Shown here in pieces: positions 1 through 5,523 of a DNA stretch of 5,523 bases. The DNA lies in the IMG/VR virus record IMGVR_UViG_3300045988_094648, positions 1 through 5,523 of that record; one strand, written 5' to 3'. The notes below the pieces were generated by a model, which did not search any database, was not told where the DNA came from, and saw only the letters and a program-made list of their open reading frames with translations. The position numbers and the translations under genes are program-made. This stretch comes from a virus. Numbering within the stretch: the first letter of the stretch is position 1; each line of letters starts with the position of its first letter.

Positions 1-904
1 AGTCTATCTGGGCACGCACACGATTTACATACTTTAGCGCATTATCTTCGGTCTGACCTTTAGCCTGCAAGTACTCGACCAGAGACCGAGCATTAAGTTC
101 ACCTTGTATGTACTTTTCAGTCATCATTTTGACTTGATTCAAGCTTGTTTCGGAGTCAAGTCGTAAAATTTCATGCGCATTCTTCTCGATATCGCTATCA
201 ATTTTCGCGATTTCGTGAGGCAGTAAAGCATTAATCCGGTTTGTTTGCGCTCCGAGATTCGCAGTTGTCGCATTTGCGACGTCTGTCTGCGGACCGCTAA
301 TATATCGAGCCTCAGCATTGTATTTATCAATCTCAGACTGCGCTTTCGCAGTGCCGACACCTTTTGTGAAATCAGCACTGGCTTGTAAATTATTCGCATT
401 AGCAAGTAGCTGCACTAATTGAGTCTCTAACATAGCCTTTTTGTAATCTGCTTCTGTTGACGCGGCACGACCTTCCTGCGTCTTTTTATATGTATCCGCA
501 CTAAGATTCAAATTTTGCTGCTCCAAATTTTTTTCCTGCTGCTGTTGAATCTTTCGATTCGTCTTAGCAGAATACATACCAGTCATAGCATTAATACCAT
601 TAGAAACATCTGAACCATAACCAGTATAAGCATTAGAGGAATAAGAAGCGGTCGCGCCGGCAGGTGTCGACGCGCCTTGGCCACCCATGCCAGAAAGCAT
701 GGGATTCAAGCCGGCTTTACGCAAATCTTCAATCTCGCGCTGATGGGCCGTGGAAGACATCTTTTCTTGCCAATCACGAGTTTTTTGCGCTTCCTGCGAT
801 TGCCATTGCATCTGCTCACGCGAAAGTGCAGCCTGGGCATTAGCCGATTTATTACCCGACCATATACCAAGGGCGGCGCCGGCGACCGACGATAAAAAAC
901 TCAT
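1..904 (-). CDS. VP2: VP2 minor capsid / DNA pilot protein, N-terminal 301 codons. The ORF is open to the window edge and continues across the circular junction into 5468..5329.
   Basis: I translated the minus strand by hand. ATG is at 904..902, preceded by AAGGAG (920..915) with a 10-nt spacer. The frame is open all the way to position 1 (MSFLSSVAGAALGIWSGNKSANAQAALSREQMQWQSQEAQKTRDWQEKMSSTAHQREIEDLRKAGLNPMLSGMGG...). Position directly downstream of VP1, the Gly/Ala-rich N-terminus and the Q/N/K-rich coiled-coil-like body fit gokushovirus VP2. The ORF track omits it because it has no in-window stop. Confidence 0.8.
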   Translation of the reverse strand, partial: MSFLSSVAGAALGIWSGNKSANAQAALSREQMQWQSQEAQKTRDWQEKMSSTAHQREIEDLRKAGLNPMLSGMGGQGASTPAGATASYSSNAYTGYGSDVSNGINAMTGMYSAKTNRKIQQQQEKNLEQQNLNLSADTYKKTQEGRAASTEADYKKAMLETQLVQLLANANNLQASADFTKGVGTAKAQSEIDKYNAEARYISGPQTDVANATTANLGAQTNRINALLPHEIAKIDSDIEKNAHEILRLDSETSLNQVKMMTEKYIQGELNARSLVEYLQAKGQTEDNALKYVNRVRAQID

Positions 905-919
905 ACGTCATCAACTCCT

Positions 920-2611
920 TTAGAAATGATCAAGCATACCAGGAACACCATAAACCGGCATGGGGCGAGCGCATTTTAAATCTAAATACGCATCAAGGTA
1001 AAACTGCGGCTCACTTTGTACAGCACTAATACGCTTAATAGCCTGATAACTAGCCTGGTCCTGAATAAACTCGCCATTAAGTGCGGGTAAAGCATCAAAT
1101 TTTTGTGCAAAATGCCAAACATCAACACTCTGTGCATAGGTACTACGCATCTTGCCGGTAATGATAGAAGGATGATACCGGCATTCGGCATAGCGTTCCT
1201 GGTAACCAAAAACCTGATTGTCGCTATCATTGCCTTGAGCATAAATTTCCTTATTGAGCACGGCCTGCTCTCCAAGGTGAGCAAAAGTAGGCCAATAAAA
1301 CTCTTCACGAGTTTGGCGCAGCCATGTCTTATTAATGCCCTGCTGATAGCTCAAATCAGTACGAATATTACATAAACCAATAACAATTCCGTGCTCAGTA
1401 AACGACTTATTAAAACCATGAACACGCGTACTCATTAAAGCATACGCAGACAAGTTACCCTGTGGGGACGTGGTATCTGTGGAGGACGTCTGTTGAACAG
1501 GATTGAACATAATTGGAGTGGAATCACCACCGAGGTATTCACTGCGCTGGAGACGGGCATCGGGCGAAATAATACCAAAGTGCGAGCGGATAATCTCCGT
1601 GTAACGAGTACCACCACGAGCATCTTTTTCGTAAAACCGCTGGAGCGCAAAGGCAGAGCGCAAACTATTAATCGTGATTGCCGTTGCACTGGACAAATCG
1701 ACCCTCGCATGGCTCGAGTCGGCGGTACCGGAAACCGTCACGCTGCCAGACATCCAGACGGGAACGTTTATATCGGAATCGGACTGCATAGTTGCATAAA
1801 GTCTCGAGTCATTAGCTACTGACACAGGCGAGCCAGAAACACCCGAGGGCCGGGGCGAAATAGGCAATCGACCCCTTAAGCTGTCGTCATTAATACTACC
1901 AGTAGCGGAAACCGGAAGTGATCCAGTAATAGTTGCAGATTGGCCAAGAGGTAACTCTACGCCAGGACCCTTTTGAGGCCAGGGCAAGGCGCTCGTAAAA
2001 TAATCATGACGCTTACCACGATAAAAACATTGAGCAGCCGTAGCATCTTGCGAAGCATCACCACCATATGCGTCATCTTCCGAGGATGTCGAAGAAAGCG
2101 GTGCACCAGTTTGGATAGACACAGCATTTTGAAGATTTTCATCACGGAACCAGTCATTATAAATCTTCCAATACGCTCTAAACGGGAACGCACTTACAGA
2201 CAACTTATTTTTTACCTCAGTCGGAAAACCGAAATAGTCCCACAACGTCTGGACCTGTGCATTCGTAGCCGTCATCTGCGGCACTTCATAGTCTTTACTT
2301 TGATAGCCTGCAAGTGGATTTTCGCCATTAAATTCCTTCCAATGCTTCCATAATAAGCGATATGGGACGAAAAAAAAGAAGGTGTCTAAGTACGCATTAT
2401 CCATCGCCGGAACAATCGGCGTGGCCATACGACCAAAAAGCGTTGCCTTACAATTAAAAGTATCACCAGGGTAGACTTCATCAATATAAAATGGAACAAG
2501 TCGACCTGCATCCAGTGTGGTTTTTACTGTATGTGAGCGCTTGAAGGAAGACCGGGGAATTTGATTCTGAGGACTTATAGCAAAACTGTGCTGAGTAGCT
2601 CTTTTTGACAT
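920..2611 (-). CDS. VP1: VP1 major capsid protein, 563 aa.
   Basis: ORF from the track. The N-terminus ...IPRSSFKRSHTVKTTLDAGRLVPFYIDEVYPGDTF... is the classic gokushovirus/microvirus F-like capsid signature. An internal Ser/Thr/Gly-rich variable insertion is also present. The RBS AGGAGA lies 9 nt upstream of ATG 2611..2609. The TAA stop is at 922..920. Confidence 0.95.
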   Translation of the reverse strand: MSKRATQHSFAISPQNQIPRSSFKRSHTVKTTLDAGRLVPFYIDEVYPGDTFNCKATLFGRMATPIVPAMDNAYLDTFFFFVPYRLLWKHWKEFNGENPLAGYQSKDYEVPQMTATNAQVQTLWDYFGFPTEVKNKLSVSAFPFRAYWKIYNDWFRDENLQNAVSIQTGAPLSSTSSEDDAYGGDASQDATAAQCFYRGKRHDYFTSALPWPQKGPGVELPLGQSATITGSLPVSATGSINDDSLRGRLPISPRPSGVSGSPVSVANDSRLYATMQSDSDINVPVWMSGSVTVSGTADSSHARVDLSSATAITINSLRSAFALQRFYEKDARGGTRYTEIIRSHFGIISPDARLQRSEYLGGDSTPIMFNPVQQTSSTDTTSPQGNLSAYALMSTRVHGFNKSFTEHGIVIGLCNIRTDLSYQQGINKTWLRQTREEFYWPTFAHLGEQAVLNKEIYAQGNDSDNQVFGYQERYAECRYHPSIITGKMRSTYAQSVDVWHFAQKFDALPALNGEFIQDQASYQAIKRISAVQSEPQFYLDAYLDLKCARPMPVYGVPGMLDHF

Positions 2612-2643
2612 TTTTATGCATCTCCTAACATCTGTATTTAGCG

Positions 2644-2662
2644 CACCAATCTAACATTGGTG
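2644..2662. other. Second hairpin (caccaat-ctaac-attggtg, 7-bp stem) 3 nt from the first, just upstream of the VP1 RBS.
   Basis: Exact reverse-complement arms read from the sequence. Confidence 0.5.
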
Positions 2663-2665
2663 TCA

Positions 2666-2700
2666 GTCGTACCAGTTACATCAAGTGGAACTGGTACGAC
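2666..2700. other. Perfect 12-bp-stem hairpin (gtcgtaccagtt / aactggtacgac, 11-nt loop) in the VP3–VP1 intergenic region.
   Basis: The arms are exact reverse complements. Such a match is not expected by chance in 5.5 kb. It sits in the 161-nt non-coding gap upstream of VP1. Confidence 0.7.
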
Positions 2701-2772
2701 CTGAAAACGAAAGTGACAACCATGCGGTTTTTCAGCTTTTCTGATAAAAAGTGACATTTACTGAGAAAATGC

Positions 2773-3210
2773 CTAACCATTAGCATTATCGCCTGCATTA
2801 TTATCCACATTTTCCGTATGATTATCAGACTTAACAACGGTCTTGGTGGCAAGACCCATAGCCACAAGTTCGTCTAAATTTTCCGGATTATCGGCAAATT
2901 CCAGGAAAGCGGCGGGGTCGTAATTAAAACGCTTACGAACCTCCAATGGCAAATTGTCAAAGTTATTTTTAGCCTCTATCATACGATTGTACATCTCCTG
3001 TGCATTGTCCGGCAGTGATGCAAAATCACCAAAAACAGGCTGTGCCGGCTGTCCATCACCATGAAAAGTCGGCATAACACCAGAAGAATCATACATAGAG
3101 ACAATATAATTTATATCTGCCTCGTCTTTAAACTGCTGCTGAGTCAAGGAGGGCATACTAGATTTCCAACCTTCACGAACGCCTGCATTATACCTAGAGC
3201 GAATCTCCAT
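2773..3210 (-). CDS. VP3: VP3 internal scaffolding protein, about 145 aa from the internal Met. The track ORF extends to 3303, but the 5' extension lacks an RBS and overlaps the upstream gene.
   Basis: The sequence MEIRSRYNAGVREGWKSSMPSLTQQQFKDEADINYIVSMYDSSGVMPTFHGDGQPAQPVFGDFASLPDNAQEMYNRMIEAKNNFDNLPLEVRKRFNYDPAAFLEF... resembles gokushovirus scaffold proteins. AAAGGAG lies 8 nt upstream of ATG 3210..3208. Position immediately upstream of VP1. Size is typical. Confidence 0.75.
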   Translation of the reverse strand: MEIRSRYNAGVREGWKSSMPSLTQQQFKDEADINYIVSMYDSSGVMPTFHGDGQPAQPVFGDFASLPDNAQEMYNRMIEAKNNFDNLPLEVRKRFNYDPAAFLEFADNPENLDELVAMGLATKTVVKSDNHTENVDNNAGDNANG

Positions 3211-3472
3211 TAGCTTCACTCCTTTCAACATTAGCGCACTGCATGGCATGACAAATAAAAGTAGGCATATCATAAGGCTTAAGAATACCTTTCTCGTCAT
3301 CAAATTCTCCTAAGCAGTACAAATGGAAATCGCCGAGGTGCTGACTAACAAGACTCCGACTATCGTTACACAAATCACTAAAAGAACGGCCAGCAACCAG
3401 GTCATTTTGGGCAAAGTACGGCGTATTAAAGCACTGTGCCTTATCATCCAAGATTGAATAAACCTTAAGCAT
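3194..3472 (-). CDS. 92-aa VP5-like non-structural protein (putative). Its last 17 nt overlap the VP3 start.
   Basis: ORF from the track (MLKVYSILDDKAQCFNTPYFAQNDLVAGRSFSDL...LGEFDDEKGILKPYD...). AAAGGAG lies 10 nt upstream of ATG 3472..3470. Position between VP4 and VP3 is where gokushoviruses carry VP5. I recognise the family only weakly. Confidence 0.5.
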   Translation of the reverse strand: MLKVYSILDDKAQCFNTPYFAQNDLVAGRSFSDLCNDSRSLVSQHLGDFHLYCLGEFDDEKGILKPYDMPTFICHAMQCANVERSEANGDSL

Positions 3473-3508
3473 TTCGTAACAACTCCTTTTAAAATATTAA
3501 GAATAAAA

Positions 3509-3709
3509 TCAAAAATAGCGGAAACAATAACGGTCAAGATACGTGCGAGGATAGCGATTTTCCAACTCCTTTCTACTGTAAAAATATTTTGTTTTCCACG
3601 GCGAAAAACAAACAGCATCTGTAATATCAGTATTACGCGCCTTGCAATAAATCTGCCACAAATCTACTTCATCAAAGGACTCATACAATCGATGTACGTA
3701 TATACGCAT
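3509..3709 (-). CDS. 66-aa hypothetical protein. An alternative upstream ATG at 3775 would give 88 aa.
   Basis: A strong Shine-Dalgarno AAAGGAGGT sits 4 nt upstream of ATG 3709..3707 (MRIYVHRLYESFDEVDLWQIYCKARNTDITDAVCFSPWKTKYFYSRKELENRYPRTYLDRYCFRYF). It is on the coding strand between VP4 and the VP5-like gene. I recognise no homology. Confidence 0.4.
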   Translation of the reverse strand: MRIYVHRLYESFDEVDLWQIYCKARNTDITDAVCFSPWKTKYFYSRKELENRYPRTYLDRYCFRYF

Positions 3710-3838
3710 AATACCTCCTTTCACGAGAGGGAGTGTTGCTTGGAATAACAGAAAAGGATCGCTCAATTTAGACATAAAAAAATGCCCTCTCGTTGATACA
3801 ATAGTACCTTACGGGGGGGGCAAACTGTCAAGCAACAT

Positions 3839-4765
3839 CTACTCATACATATCCATATCATCATGTAGCCTTCGGACGAGCTTGGTTAGCTTACGAGCCT
3901 TTAACCGCTCTTGAACCTGGGCAACTTCATACTCTTCCGTTGTCATCGACTCGTCGCGACAATACTTGTCTTGGCGAGCCTTTTTAACTTTCTCATACAA
4001 ATCGGGGTCATCCTTTTCCAACAAGGAATCATAATACGCAGGTGGCTTACATGTCATCCCATCACGAATAACAATAAAGTCATTGGGATAAACCTGACTT
4101 TTATACTTTTCATACCAATCATGACCAAGACCTGGCATGCGTGACATCAAGACAAAAGGCTGCAGGGATTCGTCAACATCATCGCCTTTCTGCTTTTTCA
4201 TCACATAACGAGCAACATAAGCACACGATTCAAAAGTAACACCTCCAACCAAACTGAAGCCGTAGGGCCAAAGCCTTTCTAAAATTGGACTTCTATAATA
4301 CTGGAAGCCATTCTTAACCGTATGAATCATTAAATCCGGAAATCGTAAGCCAAAAATAACTGCATGGTAGTGCGGCCTTTTAAACTTATGGCCATACTCG
4401 CCGCAAGCGAAAAAGCGAAGGCCGTTACCAAACTTCTTACGAAGTCGCTTCATGAATTTCTGGAAAACATCTTTATGAATTTTACCATCTGCCGGCAGAT
4501 ATTCGGGGCTATACGTAAGCGTTAAAAAAGAACCAATACAACCAGCCGTTTCGAACTCATGTACACAACGCATGGCCCATTGCCGGCTATACTCAAGCCG
4601 GCAACCGACACACTGGCCACACGGAACATAAATTGTCTCCGGAAGTCTACCAAGTGGACGCCACGCATTTCCATAATTTGCCGTCAACGAACGCTTGCCG
4701 GTCTCTTTGTTTATCTCCTTACTATACCACATGGGAATGGGATGATAGCATGGCAAACAAATCAC
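3839..4765 (-). CDS. VP4: VP4 rolling-circle replication initiation protein (HUH endonuclease), about 305-308 aa.
   Basis: Motif I is FLTLTY. Motif II (HUH) is PHYHAVIF. Motif III is YVARYVMKK, the catalytic Tyr pair. There is also a Cys cluster CGQCVGCRLEYSRQWAMRC. The track start at 4765 is GTG, directly abutting GGGAGG. A TTG at 4756 has 8-nt spacing from GGGAGG and would give M/LPCYHPIPMWYS... Confidence 0.9.
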   Translation of the reverse strand: MICLPCYHPIPMWYSKEINKETGKRSLTANYGNAWRPLGRLPETIYVPCGQCVGCRLEYSRQWAMRCVHEFETAGCIGSFLTLTYSPEYLPADGKIHKDVFQKFMKRLRKKFGNGLRFFACGEYGHKFKRPHYHAVIFGLRFPDLMIHTVKNGFQYYRSPILERLWPYGFSLVGGVTFESCAYVARYVMKKQKGDDVDESLQPFVLMSRMPGLGHDWYEKYKSQVYPNDFIVIRDGMTCKPPAYYDSLLEKDDPDLYEKVKKARQDKYCRDESMTTEEYEVAQVQERLKARKLTKLVRRLHDDMDMYE

Positions 4766-4916: not shown

Positions 4917-5012
4917 TTATAAAAAAACATCCAATACACTAATCACAAAAGAGACGACTAAAATGCCTAGCACAAGCCAACAAAACAATGCAACCGGCGT
5001 ACTAACCTTCAT
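4917..5012 (-). CDS. 31-aa single-pass transmembrane peptide. Hypothetical; candidate lysis or membrane-active peptide.
   Basis: Manual translation gives MKVSTPVALFCWLVLGILVVSFVISVLDVFL*. AAGGAGA lies 9 nt upstream. Its ATG (5012..5010) overlaps the TGA of the upstream ORF (ATGA). Its TAA (4919..4917) overlaps the VP8 RBS. The 21-residue uninterrupted hydrophobic core has a short polar N-terminus. Confidence 0.5.
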   Translation of the reverse strand: MKVSTPVALFCWLVLGILVVSFVISVLDVFL

Positions 5013-5173
5013 TTCTCGCCATCTCCTTTCATAATTTCCCAAAAATACTTAGACCGCTGCTCATGGGACAAATCATTAATCGACAGCGCATCAAAAACGC
5101 GCATCAAACGCAATGCAATCTTAATACGTTTATACTCATCATCTGAACAATAAATACTACGAGTTTTTCTCAT
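5009..5173 (-). CDS. 54-aa basic protein with an RHH-like (ribbon-helix-helix / MobC-CopG-like) N-terminal pattern. Putative DNA-binding regulator.
   Basis: Manual translation gives MRKTRSIYCSDDEYKRIKIALRLMRVFDALSINDLSHEQRSKYFWEIMKGDGEK*. GAGGTG lies 6 nt upstream of ATG 5173..5171. It is the first gene after a near-consensus promoter. The pattern is basic residues, then a short beta-like stretch (TRSIYCS), then DDEYKRIKIA, as in the RHH/MobC 'R..I.I.LS.EE...L...A' motif. The assignment is tentative. Confidence 0.5.
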   Translation of the reverse strand: MRKTRSIYCSDDEYKRIKIALRLMRVFDALSINDLSHEQRSKYFWEIMKGDGEK

Positions 5174-5328: not shown

Positions 5329-5523
5329 TCACTTAAAAATTTGTGTAACAAGACCGAGCGGGCTGGCATCAACAAGACCTTTTGCATTGCCAAGGATACG
5401 AGCTAGACGCTCATAAGGACCCTGCGGGGTAACGCCAGAGTAGCGATTCTGAATTTGATACTGTTTCAAGTCTATCTGGGCACGCACACGATTTACATAC
5501 TTTAGCGCATTATCTTCGGTCTG
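5329..5523 (-). CDS. VP2: VP2 C-terminal portion. Bases 5469..5523 duplicate 1..55. The TGA stop is at 5331..5329. The full protein is about 347 aa on the 5,468-nt circle.
   Basis: The frame runs continuously from the 1..904 segment through the junction. Manual translation gives ...LKQYQIQNRYSGVTPQGPYERLARILGNAKGLVDASPLGLVTQIFK*. Confidence 0.75.
   Translation of the reverse strand, partial: QTEDNALKYVNRVRAQIDLKQYQIQNRYSGVTPQGPYERLARILGNAKGLVDASPLGLVTQIFK
5469..5523. repeat. 55-nt terminal redundancy identical to 1..55. This is the circular-genome closure (assembly/windowing overlap), not a biological repeat.
   Basis: Exact identity checked base by base. The implied unit length is 5,468 nt. 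Confidence 0.9.

Follow-up and report, generated by a model that had tools for sequence, protein, structure and literature searches.

A conserved intergenic stem-loop with a phiX174-like cleavage core is a probable viral-strand replication origin of gokushoviruses

The replication origin of phiX174 is annotated to the nucleotide. Its RefSeq record places the rep_origin for viral-strand synthesis at position 4306, in CCCCCAACTTG|ATATTAATAACACTATAGACCAC (CAACTTG|ATATT), and cleavage there has been demonstrated. This origin lies inside gene A, has no hairpin and includes an AT-rich spacer. The double-strand origins of the pC194/pUB110 plasmid family and the ends of IS91 have the nick-region core CTTGATA; the pC194 origin is TTCTTATCTTGATAATAAGG, and pC194 origin constructs contain TCTTGATAATAA / CTTGATAATAA. 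In CRESS-DNA viruses (geminiviruses and circoviruses) and pT181-type plasmids, the nick sequence is instead presented in the loop of a covarying stem near the rep gene. For the opposite strand, G4 and rolling-circle plasmids use multi-hairpin complementary-strand (-) origins. Among other microviruses, intergenic hairpins with a conserved loop in the reekeekee- and roodoodoo-microviruses have been tentatively read as (-) origins (PMC9865509). In the searchable full-text literature, whose scope does not extend to the original Chp2, phiMH2K and SpV4 papers, we found no description of a gokushovirus replication origin or origin hairpin.

The window analysed here, meaning the whole stretch of 5,523 nt, is a complete circular gokushovirus genome (5468 nt); its ends overlap by 55 nt, so that position 5469 corresponds to position 1. 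Its nearest GenBank relatives are pig-gut Gokushovirinae with ~85% identity. Every gene lies on the - strand (Table 1), and because Microviridae package the coding strand, we refer to the - strand as the viral strand. The original prediction concerned the intergenic gap between VP3 and VP1, in which it had named a perfect 12-bp stem, a neighbouring 7-bp hairpin, a CTGAAAA/TTTTCAG inverted repeat, a direct repeat and a 39-codon ORF, and all of these features were found where it had placed them.

Table 1. Genes of the window and features of the VP3-VP1 gap
Feature	Position	Strand	Remarks
Intergenic gap	2612-2772		between VP3 stop (2773) and VP1 start (2611)
Predicted origin hairpin	2666-2700	-	5' arm 2700-2689, loop 2688-2678, 3' arm 2677-2666
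Loop CCACTTGATGT with conserved core ACTTGAT	2678-2688	-	predicted VP4 cleavage between G (2682) and A (2681)
TGACACC box	2659-2665	-	putative Rep binding (key) sequence; directly 3' of hairpin
Accessory 7-bp hairpin, CACCAAT-gttag-ATTGGTG	2644-2662	-	5' arm overlaps TGACACC box
CTGAAAA/TTTTCAG stem, clade-specific	2701-2707 / 2729-2735	-	adjoins 5' side of origin hairpin
39-codon ORF	2638-2757	-	no Pfam match
VP1, major capsid protein	920-2611	-	Pfam Phage_F, E 4e-169
VP3, scaffold protein	2773-3213	-	Pfam Chlamy_scaf, E 3e-35
VP5	3194-3472	-	
VP4, replication initiator	3839-4765	-	Pfam REP_ORF2-G2P, E 1.7e-20
VP2	spans window end (wraps)	-	

Read on the viral strand, the largest of these structures is GTCGTACCAGTT-CCACTTGATGT-AACTGGTACGAC, a perfect 12-bp stem that closes an 11-nt loop. 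No other perfect hairpin in the genome is as long, and a stem of 12 bp was not reached in any of 300 first-order Markov genomes. When folded in silico as single-stranded DNA and as RNA, as had been proposed, the hairpin gave -11.9 kcal/mol and z = -5.5 for ssDNA and a z of -2.6 for RNA. The claim that a stem of this length is far beyond chance expectation therefore stands. The 7-bp hairpin is significant by itself (-5.0 kcal/mol, z = -4.1) and shows a single compensatory change, C-G to T-A, in the relative MG945487, which confirms it as well.

The CTGAAAA/TTTTCAG repeat was not significant as a fold by itself (z = -1.1), but in MG945147 and MG945487 both arms have changed in step, to CCGAAAA/TTTTCGG, converting a T-A pair to C-G. 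Sensitive blastn with the whole gap found none of this stem outside the close pig-gut relatives. On the strength of the fold statistics and the compensatory changes among close relatives, the three stems of the gap are real. The gap is ~95% identical among six close relatives, compared to ~85% genome-wide. The direct repeat AAAGTGACA is present at 2710-2718 and 2748-2756, 38 nt apart; because its 2710-2718 copy varies in four of five close relatives, we treated TGTCACTTT as a chance repeat that is probably without function. The 39-codon ORF was rejected as a gene since it is interrupted by a TGA stop in MG945147 and has no Pfam match, in agreement with the original view that the gap holds no supported ORF.

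The hairpin extends much further than the gap around it. By sensitive blastn, the full 161-nt gap was matched in seven close pig relatives only, whereas the hairpin alone (44-50 nt) matched ~28 more microviruses, nearly always in unannotated DNA, from pig, dog, rodent, lemur, human, sea squirt, honeybee, blackfly, sparrow and a freshwater spring. The pattern ACTTGATGTAA-N10-TGACAC was found in at least 119 IMG/VR contigs among the matches listed, mostly of 4-6 kb and with one copy per genome; two matches per contig occurred only where the assembly is a dimer or has a terminal overlap. The loop of these motif-retrieved sequences is fixed by construction, and unbiased information comes only from their N10 stem positions and from a second set of 80 genomes, which were retrieved by VP4 protein homology only (39-93% identity).

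In this VP4-selected set, a hairpin with CTTGNT in its loop was present in 75 of 80 genomes. A stricter filter retained the element in 69 of the 80, and inspection by eye in ~71 (about 88%), while ~10% had no element detectable by the criteria used, some of these being partial contigs. The loop core of the 69 elements was TACTTGATG in 41 and CACTTGATG in nine, so that 50 of 69 share [T/C]ACTTGATG, and the consensus of the fixed core is [T/C]ACTTG[A/T]T. A TGACACC box follows nearly all hairpins of the set. The three classic genera known from culture carry the element too: Chp2 at 2904-2941 (CTAGCGTATAACAG-tcTACTTGAT-CTGTTATACGCTAG, then gTGATAGC), phiMH2K at 3296-3335 (loop ggacccTACTTGtTGTAA) and SpV4 at 512-544 (loop atTACTTGtTata, then tTGACGAC). 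The hairpin is thus kept in phages of Chlamydia, Bdellovibrio, Spiroplasma and E. coli, including E. coli prophages, and is conserved across the gokushovirus subfamily.

Within the window, CTTGATG occurs three times on the coding strand (2685, 4151 and 997), and only the site at 2685 lies in a hairpin of at least 8 bp, so the hairpin element is present as a single copy on its replicon. We also asked whether a second hairpin belongs to the element in all genomes. Stems of 6 bp or more that pair with the box were enriched, being found in 33% of 122 genomes compared to 5% in shuffled controls, but with only about one third of genomes having such a stem, a second hairpin was rejected as a universal component.

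The original prediction had proposed covariation across related gokushoviruses as a check on the hairpin. In an alignment of 99 distinct homologues, both sides were changed in 10 of the 12 stem pairs. Double-change cells numbered 221, compared to 96 +/- 10 in shuffled alignments, and 0 of 500 shuffles were as high; the covariation score was 0.41, falling to 0.06-0.11 when partner columns were slid. The signal is carried by the free N10 positions and is therefore not an artefact of retrieval. Pairs of the inner stem were 90% Watson-Crick with only 2% G.T, fewer wobble pairs than we would expect of an RNA helix. Collectively, these data establish a real hairpin structure that selection maintains. 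There was no variation in the loop core or the TGAC box, whereas VP4 proteins from these genomes share only ~40-50% identity; the DNA core is better conserved than the proteins.

We then compared the position and orientation of the motif in 127 genomes. It was intergenic in all but one, the exception being a dubious gene call, and it lay on the coding strand in 122. VP3 directly precedes the hairpin in 104 of the 127 genomes. The gene that follows may be VP4 (directly after the hairpin in 100), VP1 (in 19, the window included) or VP5. When VP4 follows, the hairpin is sometimes only ~25 nt from the ATG, and in many genomes the TGACACC box runs directly into the VP4 ribosome-binding site. In Blackfly microvirus SF02 and four further genomes (L023, L038, L073 and L091), the same sequence occupies the same VP3/VP5-VP4 gap in inverted orientation. 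Because the sequence is kept whatever the downstream gene or the direction of transcription, the element acts at the DNA level and is no part of the VP1 message. A role in that message had been suggested, and it is disfavoured by a comparison in which VP1 lies downstream in only 19 of 127 genomes and five genomes hold the element inverted.

The loop suggests what the element may do. Its 7-mer ACTTGAT is identical to phiX174 positions 4301-4307, across the annotated cut, and the nick-site core CTTG|AT lies on the strand that would be displaced, the viral strand. In both systems the sequence occurs once per genome on the packaged strand. The likeness spans -7 to +23 relative to the cut: GAC stands at +18 to +20 in both the gokushovirus box and phiX174 (GACCAC), and the conserved gokushovirus block ends at +23, which is also the end of the 30-nt phiX174 origin. 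When a weight matrix was derived solely from VP4-selected gokushovirus elements, the hairpin ranked first in Chp2, phiMH2K and SpV4, and the true phiX174 origin ranked third of 10772 positions, with most of the score coming from the core. With a matrix of the box alone, the phiX174 origin ranked only 197th of 10772 positions. The box is therefore weak as independent evidence of phiX174 homology, and its similarity to the phiX174 origin should be regarded as suggestive.

The presumed initiator points in the same direction. VP4, encoded on the same replicon, contains the motif FLTLTY, the HUH motif RPHYHAVIF and the two-tyrosine motif YVARYVMKK, and thus has the catalytic tyrosines of a cognate HUH initiator. 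When VP4 was aligned with phiX174 protein A, the corresponding motifs fell in the same columns (FLTLTY/FDTLTL, RPHYHAVIF/RLHFHAVHF and YVARYVMKK/YVAKYVNKK), so that the two origins would be served by homologous initiators of the HUH and YxxxY type. These alignments are read most simply as nearly the same catalytic centre working on nearly the same core, and VP4 is presumed to act on the hairpin in trans.

The gokushovirus element is nevertheless a different element from phiX174's own origin. It is intergenic rather than inside the initiator gene, its core lies in the loop of an 8-16-bp hairpin rather than in unstructured DNA, and a G+C-containing 3' arm replaces the AT-rich spacer, with a 5' arm added. 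Cleavage, which is demonstrated for phiX174, is predicted here. We therefore describe the gokushovirus element as a variant of the phiX174 origin.

The other known systems share one side of this combination each. With CTTGATAATAA also contained in the pC194 origin, this Rep lineage appears to have had CTTG|AT as its ancestral cleavage site. The initiators of the pC194/pUB110 family are HUH enzymes of the same broad superfamily (PMC5714925). These systems, together with IS91, differ from gokushoviruses in being plasmids or transposons, in having a Rep of the Rep_1 Pfam family, and in their flanks and structures. With CRESS-DNA and pT181-type origins the likeness is one of architecture, and by analogy the gokushovirus element most likely works as those stem-loop origins do. 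Their loops (TAATATTAC or TAGTATTAC, compared to ACTTGATGT in gokushoviruses) have no sequence homology to it, and the window's loop, CCACTTGATGT, is not a nonanucleotide of the TAGTATTAC / TAATATTAC type. Their Rep proteins also differ, being single-tyrosine enzymes fused to a helicase or members of the Rep_trans family. The element is thus built like a CRESS-DNA or pT181-type origin, while its sequence and its enzyme are those of the phiX174 type. The hairpins of reekeekee- and roodoodoo-microviruses, which we compared by description only, are likewise intergenic and near Rep, and within a clade they keep one identical loop while their stems show compensatory changes; they belong to other clades, and they were not connected with the phiX174 cleavage core (PMC9865509).

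Taken together, we propose that the hairpin and the TGACACC box are probably the viral-strand (+) origin of rolling-circle replication, nicked by VP4 at 2682|2681 on the - strand. The cleavage position is predicted from homology to phiX174, and we infer cruciform extrusion, cleavage itself and a binding role for the box in the same scheme. On the supercoiled double-stranded RF, the inverted repeat would extrude as a cruciform, or the region would breathe, leaving the loop sequence ACTTGAT single-stranded. VP4, an HUH endonuclease with two catalytic tyrosines and homologous to phiX174 A, would dock on the stem and box, cut the viral strand between G and A in CTTG|AT and become covalently joined to the 5' end, and a host polymerase would extend the 3'-OH. 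One round later, the regenerated hairpin would be cut and the ends joined via the second tyrosine, releasing circular ssDNA for packaging. Relative to phiX174, the site would have moved out of the rep gene and gained a 5' arm, and the AT-rich spacer would have become the 3' arm of the stem.

The original prediction had drawn an analogy with phiX174 as well, reading the hairpin as a possible (-) origin with a PriA n' site. Its first half holds, in that the hairpin fits a cis-acting replication element; the evidence, however, fits the A-protein (+) cleavage site better than an n' site. As a (-) origin, the hairpin would be recognised on the packaged strand by the PriA primosome, DnaG primase or RNA polymerase. 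Such a hairpin should be stable as ssDNA and lie on the packaged strand, as this one does in 122 of 127 genomes, and a conserved packaged-strand hairpin could in principle also serve there. In the clade of the window, the two flanking stem-loops with compensatory changes recall the multi-hairpin (-) origins of rolling-circle plasmids (PMC5714925), and the conserved-loop hairpins of other microvirus clades have been tentatively read in this way (PMC9865509). We consider a (-) origin unlikely, as the invariant loop is the phiX174 (+) cleavage core, the accessory hairpins are absent from most genomes and the box in many genomes runs into the VP4 ribosome-binding site. The hosts of the phages that keep the element (Chlamydia, Spiroplasma, Bdellovibrio and E. 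coli) differ widely in their priming systems, and a site recognised by host priming proteins would be expected to track the host; the conservation thus fits recognition by the phage Rep better. Alongside the viral-strand origin, the accessory hairpins may prime complementary-strand synthesis or affect mRNA 3' or 5' ends.

A second alternative is another VP4- or assembly-related cis signal distinct from the nick site, such as an operator through which VP4 regulates its own expression, or a signal for packaging. A position immediately before the VP4 start, as in 100 of 127 genomes and at times so close to the ATG, would suit an operator, and such roles could coexist with origin function. By themselves, these roles are improbable: in the window and 18 other genomes the element precedes VP1, far from VP4, and neither role explains the identity with the phiX174 cleavage core. 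For packaging, phiX174 couples the process to the origin-bound A protein and is not known to have a separate signal.

An RNA-level element, which the original prediction had offered as a processing or stability site, would end transcription after VP3, or serve message stability or processing at the 5' end of VP1 or the 3' end of VP3. Intergenic hairpins of phiX174 have terminator and mRNA-stability or processing roles, the hairpin directly follows VP3 in 104 of 127 genomes, and it also folds as RNA, with the weaker z-score given above. We nonetheless regard this reading as highly improbable. The stem is followed by the conserved TGACACC rather than by a T-run, and a terminator needs no invariant loop sequence, here that of the phiX174 cleavage core. 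The stem has very few G.U-type pairs, the downstream gene varies, and five genomes hold the sequence on the non-transcribed strand. Scanning 2450-2950 for promoters and terminators gave no terminator-like site; a single weak promoter-like site was found, within VP3, which is no more than chance would produce. Against Rfam 15, the whole window had no covariance-model match at E <= 1.

Finally, an integration site of the kind found in enterobacterial gokushoviruses, a dif-like XerC/XerD site or attP for lysogeny, was prompted by GGTGCGC beside the small hairpin and agrees with the partly palindromic, non-coding nature of the element and with the occurrence of gokushovirus dif motifs in non-coding regions (PMC7062461), but it deserves almost no credence, since the E. 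coli C41 prophage has its dif-like sites at its ends (3322 and 7844) and the hairpin internally (5001-5044, between VP3 and VP1 as in the window), no dif-like sequence was found in the window even at 9 mismatches in 28, and dif-deleted phages still replicate as circles (PMC7062461).

Outside viral contigs, a 22-base version of the motif was found at 22 loci among 185,579 species genomes, and many of these are prophages or binned phage contigs. Two of the 22 loci are CRISPR spacers, in Natronospirillum operosum and Marinomonas arctica. Both spacers start at the same base, which we considered as a sign of the nick; given known PAM preferences, a PAM-like CC or TTC in the 5' part of the loop would be the simpler explanation, and the idea was dropped.

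Three of the 22 loci hold a complete hairpin without VP1-VP5. In a Micavibrio genome (L148), the hairpin is part of an island of 4277 nt, at whose borders the 3' end of tRNA-Glu is repeated. The island encodes an integrase, an excisionase-like ORF, a conserved 246-aa ORF and a DUF5677 protein, and has no Rep or capsid genes; the 246-aa ORF was rejected as a hidden Rep because it does not resemble VP4 (hhalign probability 0.4%). The same island layout is found beside tRNA-Gly in an alphaproteobacterial MAG (L132), and the two islands have in common a ~150-nt module around the hairpin. A search for free or packaged forms of these Rep-less islands returned 0 viral contigs and 2 short metagenome contigs, and the family is rare. 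Because the islands carry it complete, the hairpin moves as a self-contained cis module. It is a speculative and rather unlikely further step to regard the islands as satellites that are replicated by the VP4 of a helper gokushovirus and packaged in its capsid. If that were true, they would be the first satellites of single-stranded DNA phages, and under the same portable-origin reading genomes with an inverted hairpin would package the antisense strand.

The viral-strand origin reading, which we hold to be probable, recasts a phiX174-type origin as a stem-loop origin. It gives a prediction at the nucleotide level, consisting of the hairpin, CTTG|AT and TGACACC, that lends itself to testing in phages available in culture, namely Chp2, phiMH2K, SpV4 and EC6098 of E. 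coli. A (+) origin at this site would require the five or six genomes whose element is inverted to package the non-coding strand. The hairpin also offers a natural zero coordinate and a specific ~22-nt marker for gokushoviruses, their prophages and anti-gokushovirus CRISPR spacers, and together with the box it would be the cis element needed for gokushovirus-based phagemids and for finding satellites that borrow it. Gokushoviruses are among the most abundant ssDNA phages of gut, freshwater and marine viromes, and the finding would link phiX174-type and hairpin-type rolling-circle designs within one family, from an unstructured intragenic site to an intergenic stem-loop.

The 55 nt at the start of the window (1-55) recur at its end (5469-5523), so the stretch represents a circular genome of 5468 nt, and VP2 runs across the junction. 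Within the gap between the VP3 scaffold and VP1 major capsid genes (2612-2772), which holds the 12-bp hairpin, conservation among close relatives was 90-96%, compared to ~84-87% for coding regions, and the conserved stretch takes in ~60 nt on the upstream side of the hairpin (2736-2772). The intergenic region upstream of the replication initiator gene VP4 carries a run of eight G (~3815-3822) adjoining a TTGACAG-like sequence on the - strand.

Features of the window genome and of other loci carrying the hairpin
Feature	Locus and position	Strand	Source or remark
VP2	window 904..1 joined to 5468..5329	-	spans window junction
Intergenic region upstream of VP4	window 3776-3838
Inverted hairpin motif	L007, L023, L038, L073, L091, also L180		L007, Blackfly microvirus SF02, MK249209
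Prophage locus	L153, 3016985-3027028		E. coli C41, NZ_CP127252
Rep-less island with hairpin	L148, 2863-7208		Micavibrio MAG
Rep-less island with hairpin	L132, ~700-4260		Alphaproteobacteria MAG
Rep-less island with two hairpins	L151, 2809 and 4427		Pseudomonadota MAG
CRISPR spacer with hairpin sequence	L137, ~3500-3600		Natronospirillum operosum, NZ_SRMF01000001
CRISPR spacer with hairpin sequence	L138, ~6930-6990		Marinomonas arctica, NZ_QHJF01000002

In the six inverted-motif loci the hairpin occupies its usual site, the VP3/VP5-VP4 gap, with all genes encoded on the opposite strand. Such phages would be expected to package antisense DNA if the hairpin is the viral-strand origin. One of the six, L023, measures 8974 nt and contains the VP genes twice; it is therefore a dimer or concatemer rather than a large genome. 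Three further contigs, L015, L176 and L190, are likewise oversized (7.3-8.5 kb), with two hairpins each in L176 and L190.

The hairpin was also detected in seven of 5426 complete E. coli genomes, C41 and six other chromosomes. In C41, the one of these seven that was examined, it lies within a gokushovirus prophage that adjoins hipA, ends in dif-like sites and has the gene order VP4-VP5-VP3-hairpin-VP1-VP2, such that its placement from VP3 to VP1 matches the window. A single scaffold of Intestinirhabdus alba (NZ_WMJZ01000007) bears two hairpin-containing gokushovirus prophage copies (L139 and L149) a few kb apart, which look like tandem or neighbouring integrations.

Complete gokushovirus-type hairpins were additionally found in three tRNA-integrated islands, which share a tyrosine integrase and a conserved ~250-aa ORF with no assigned function, and from which VP1-VP5 and Rep are absent. 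The Micavibrio island, which also encodes an excisionase-like ORF, has at its borders two copies of a 16-nt stretch from the 3' end of tRNA-Glu; they lie 4277 nt apart, the size of a microvirus genome. The two hairpins of L151 are in direct orientation, 1.6 kb apart. These islands are possibly satellites or remnants.

Both CRISPR spacers comprise the hairpin loop, the 3' arm and the adjoining TGACACC box (TACTTGATGTAACTGGTCT..GTGACACCA..), share one starting position in the motif, and are flanked by the direct repeats GTCGCGCCCCACGCGGGCGCG.GGAT.GAAAC and GTTCGCCGCCGAGCACGCGGCTTAGAAA. These spacers show that CRISPR targeting falls on the most constrained non-coding site of gokushoviruses, and they provide host links for these phages.
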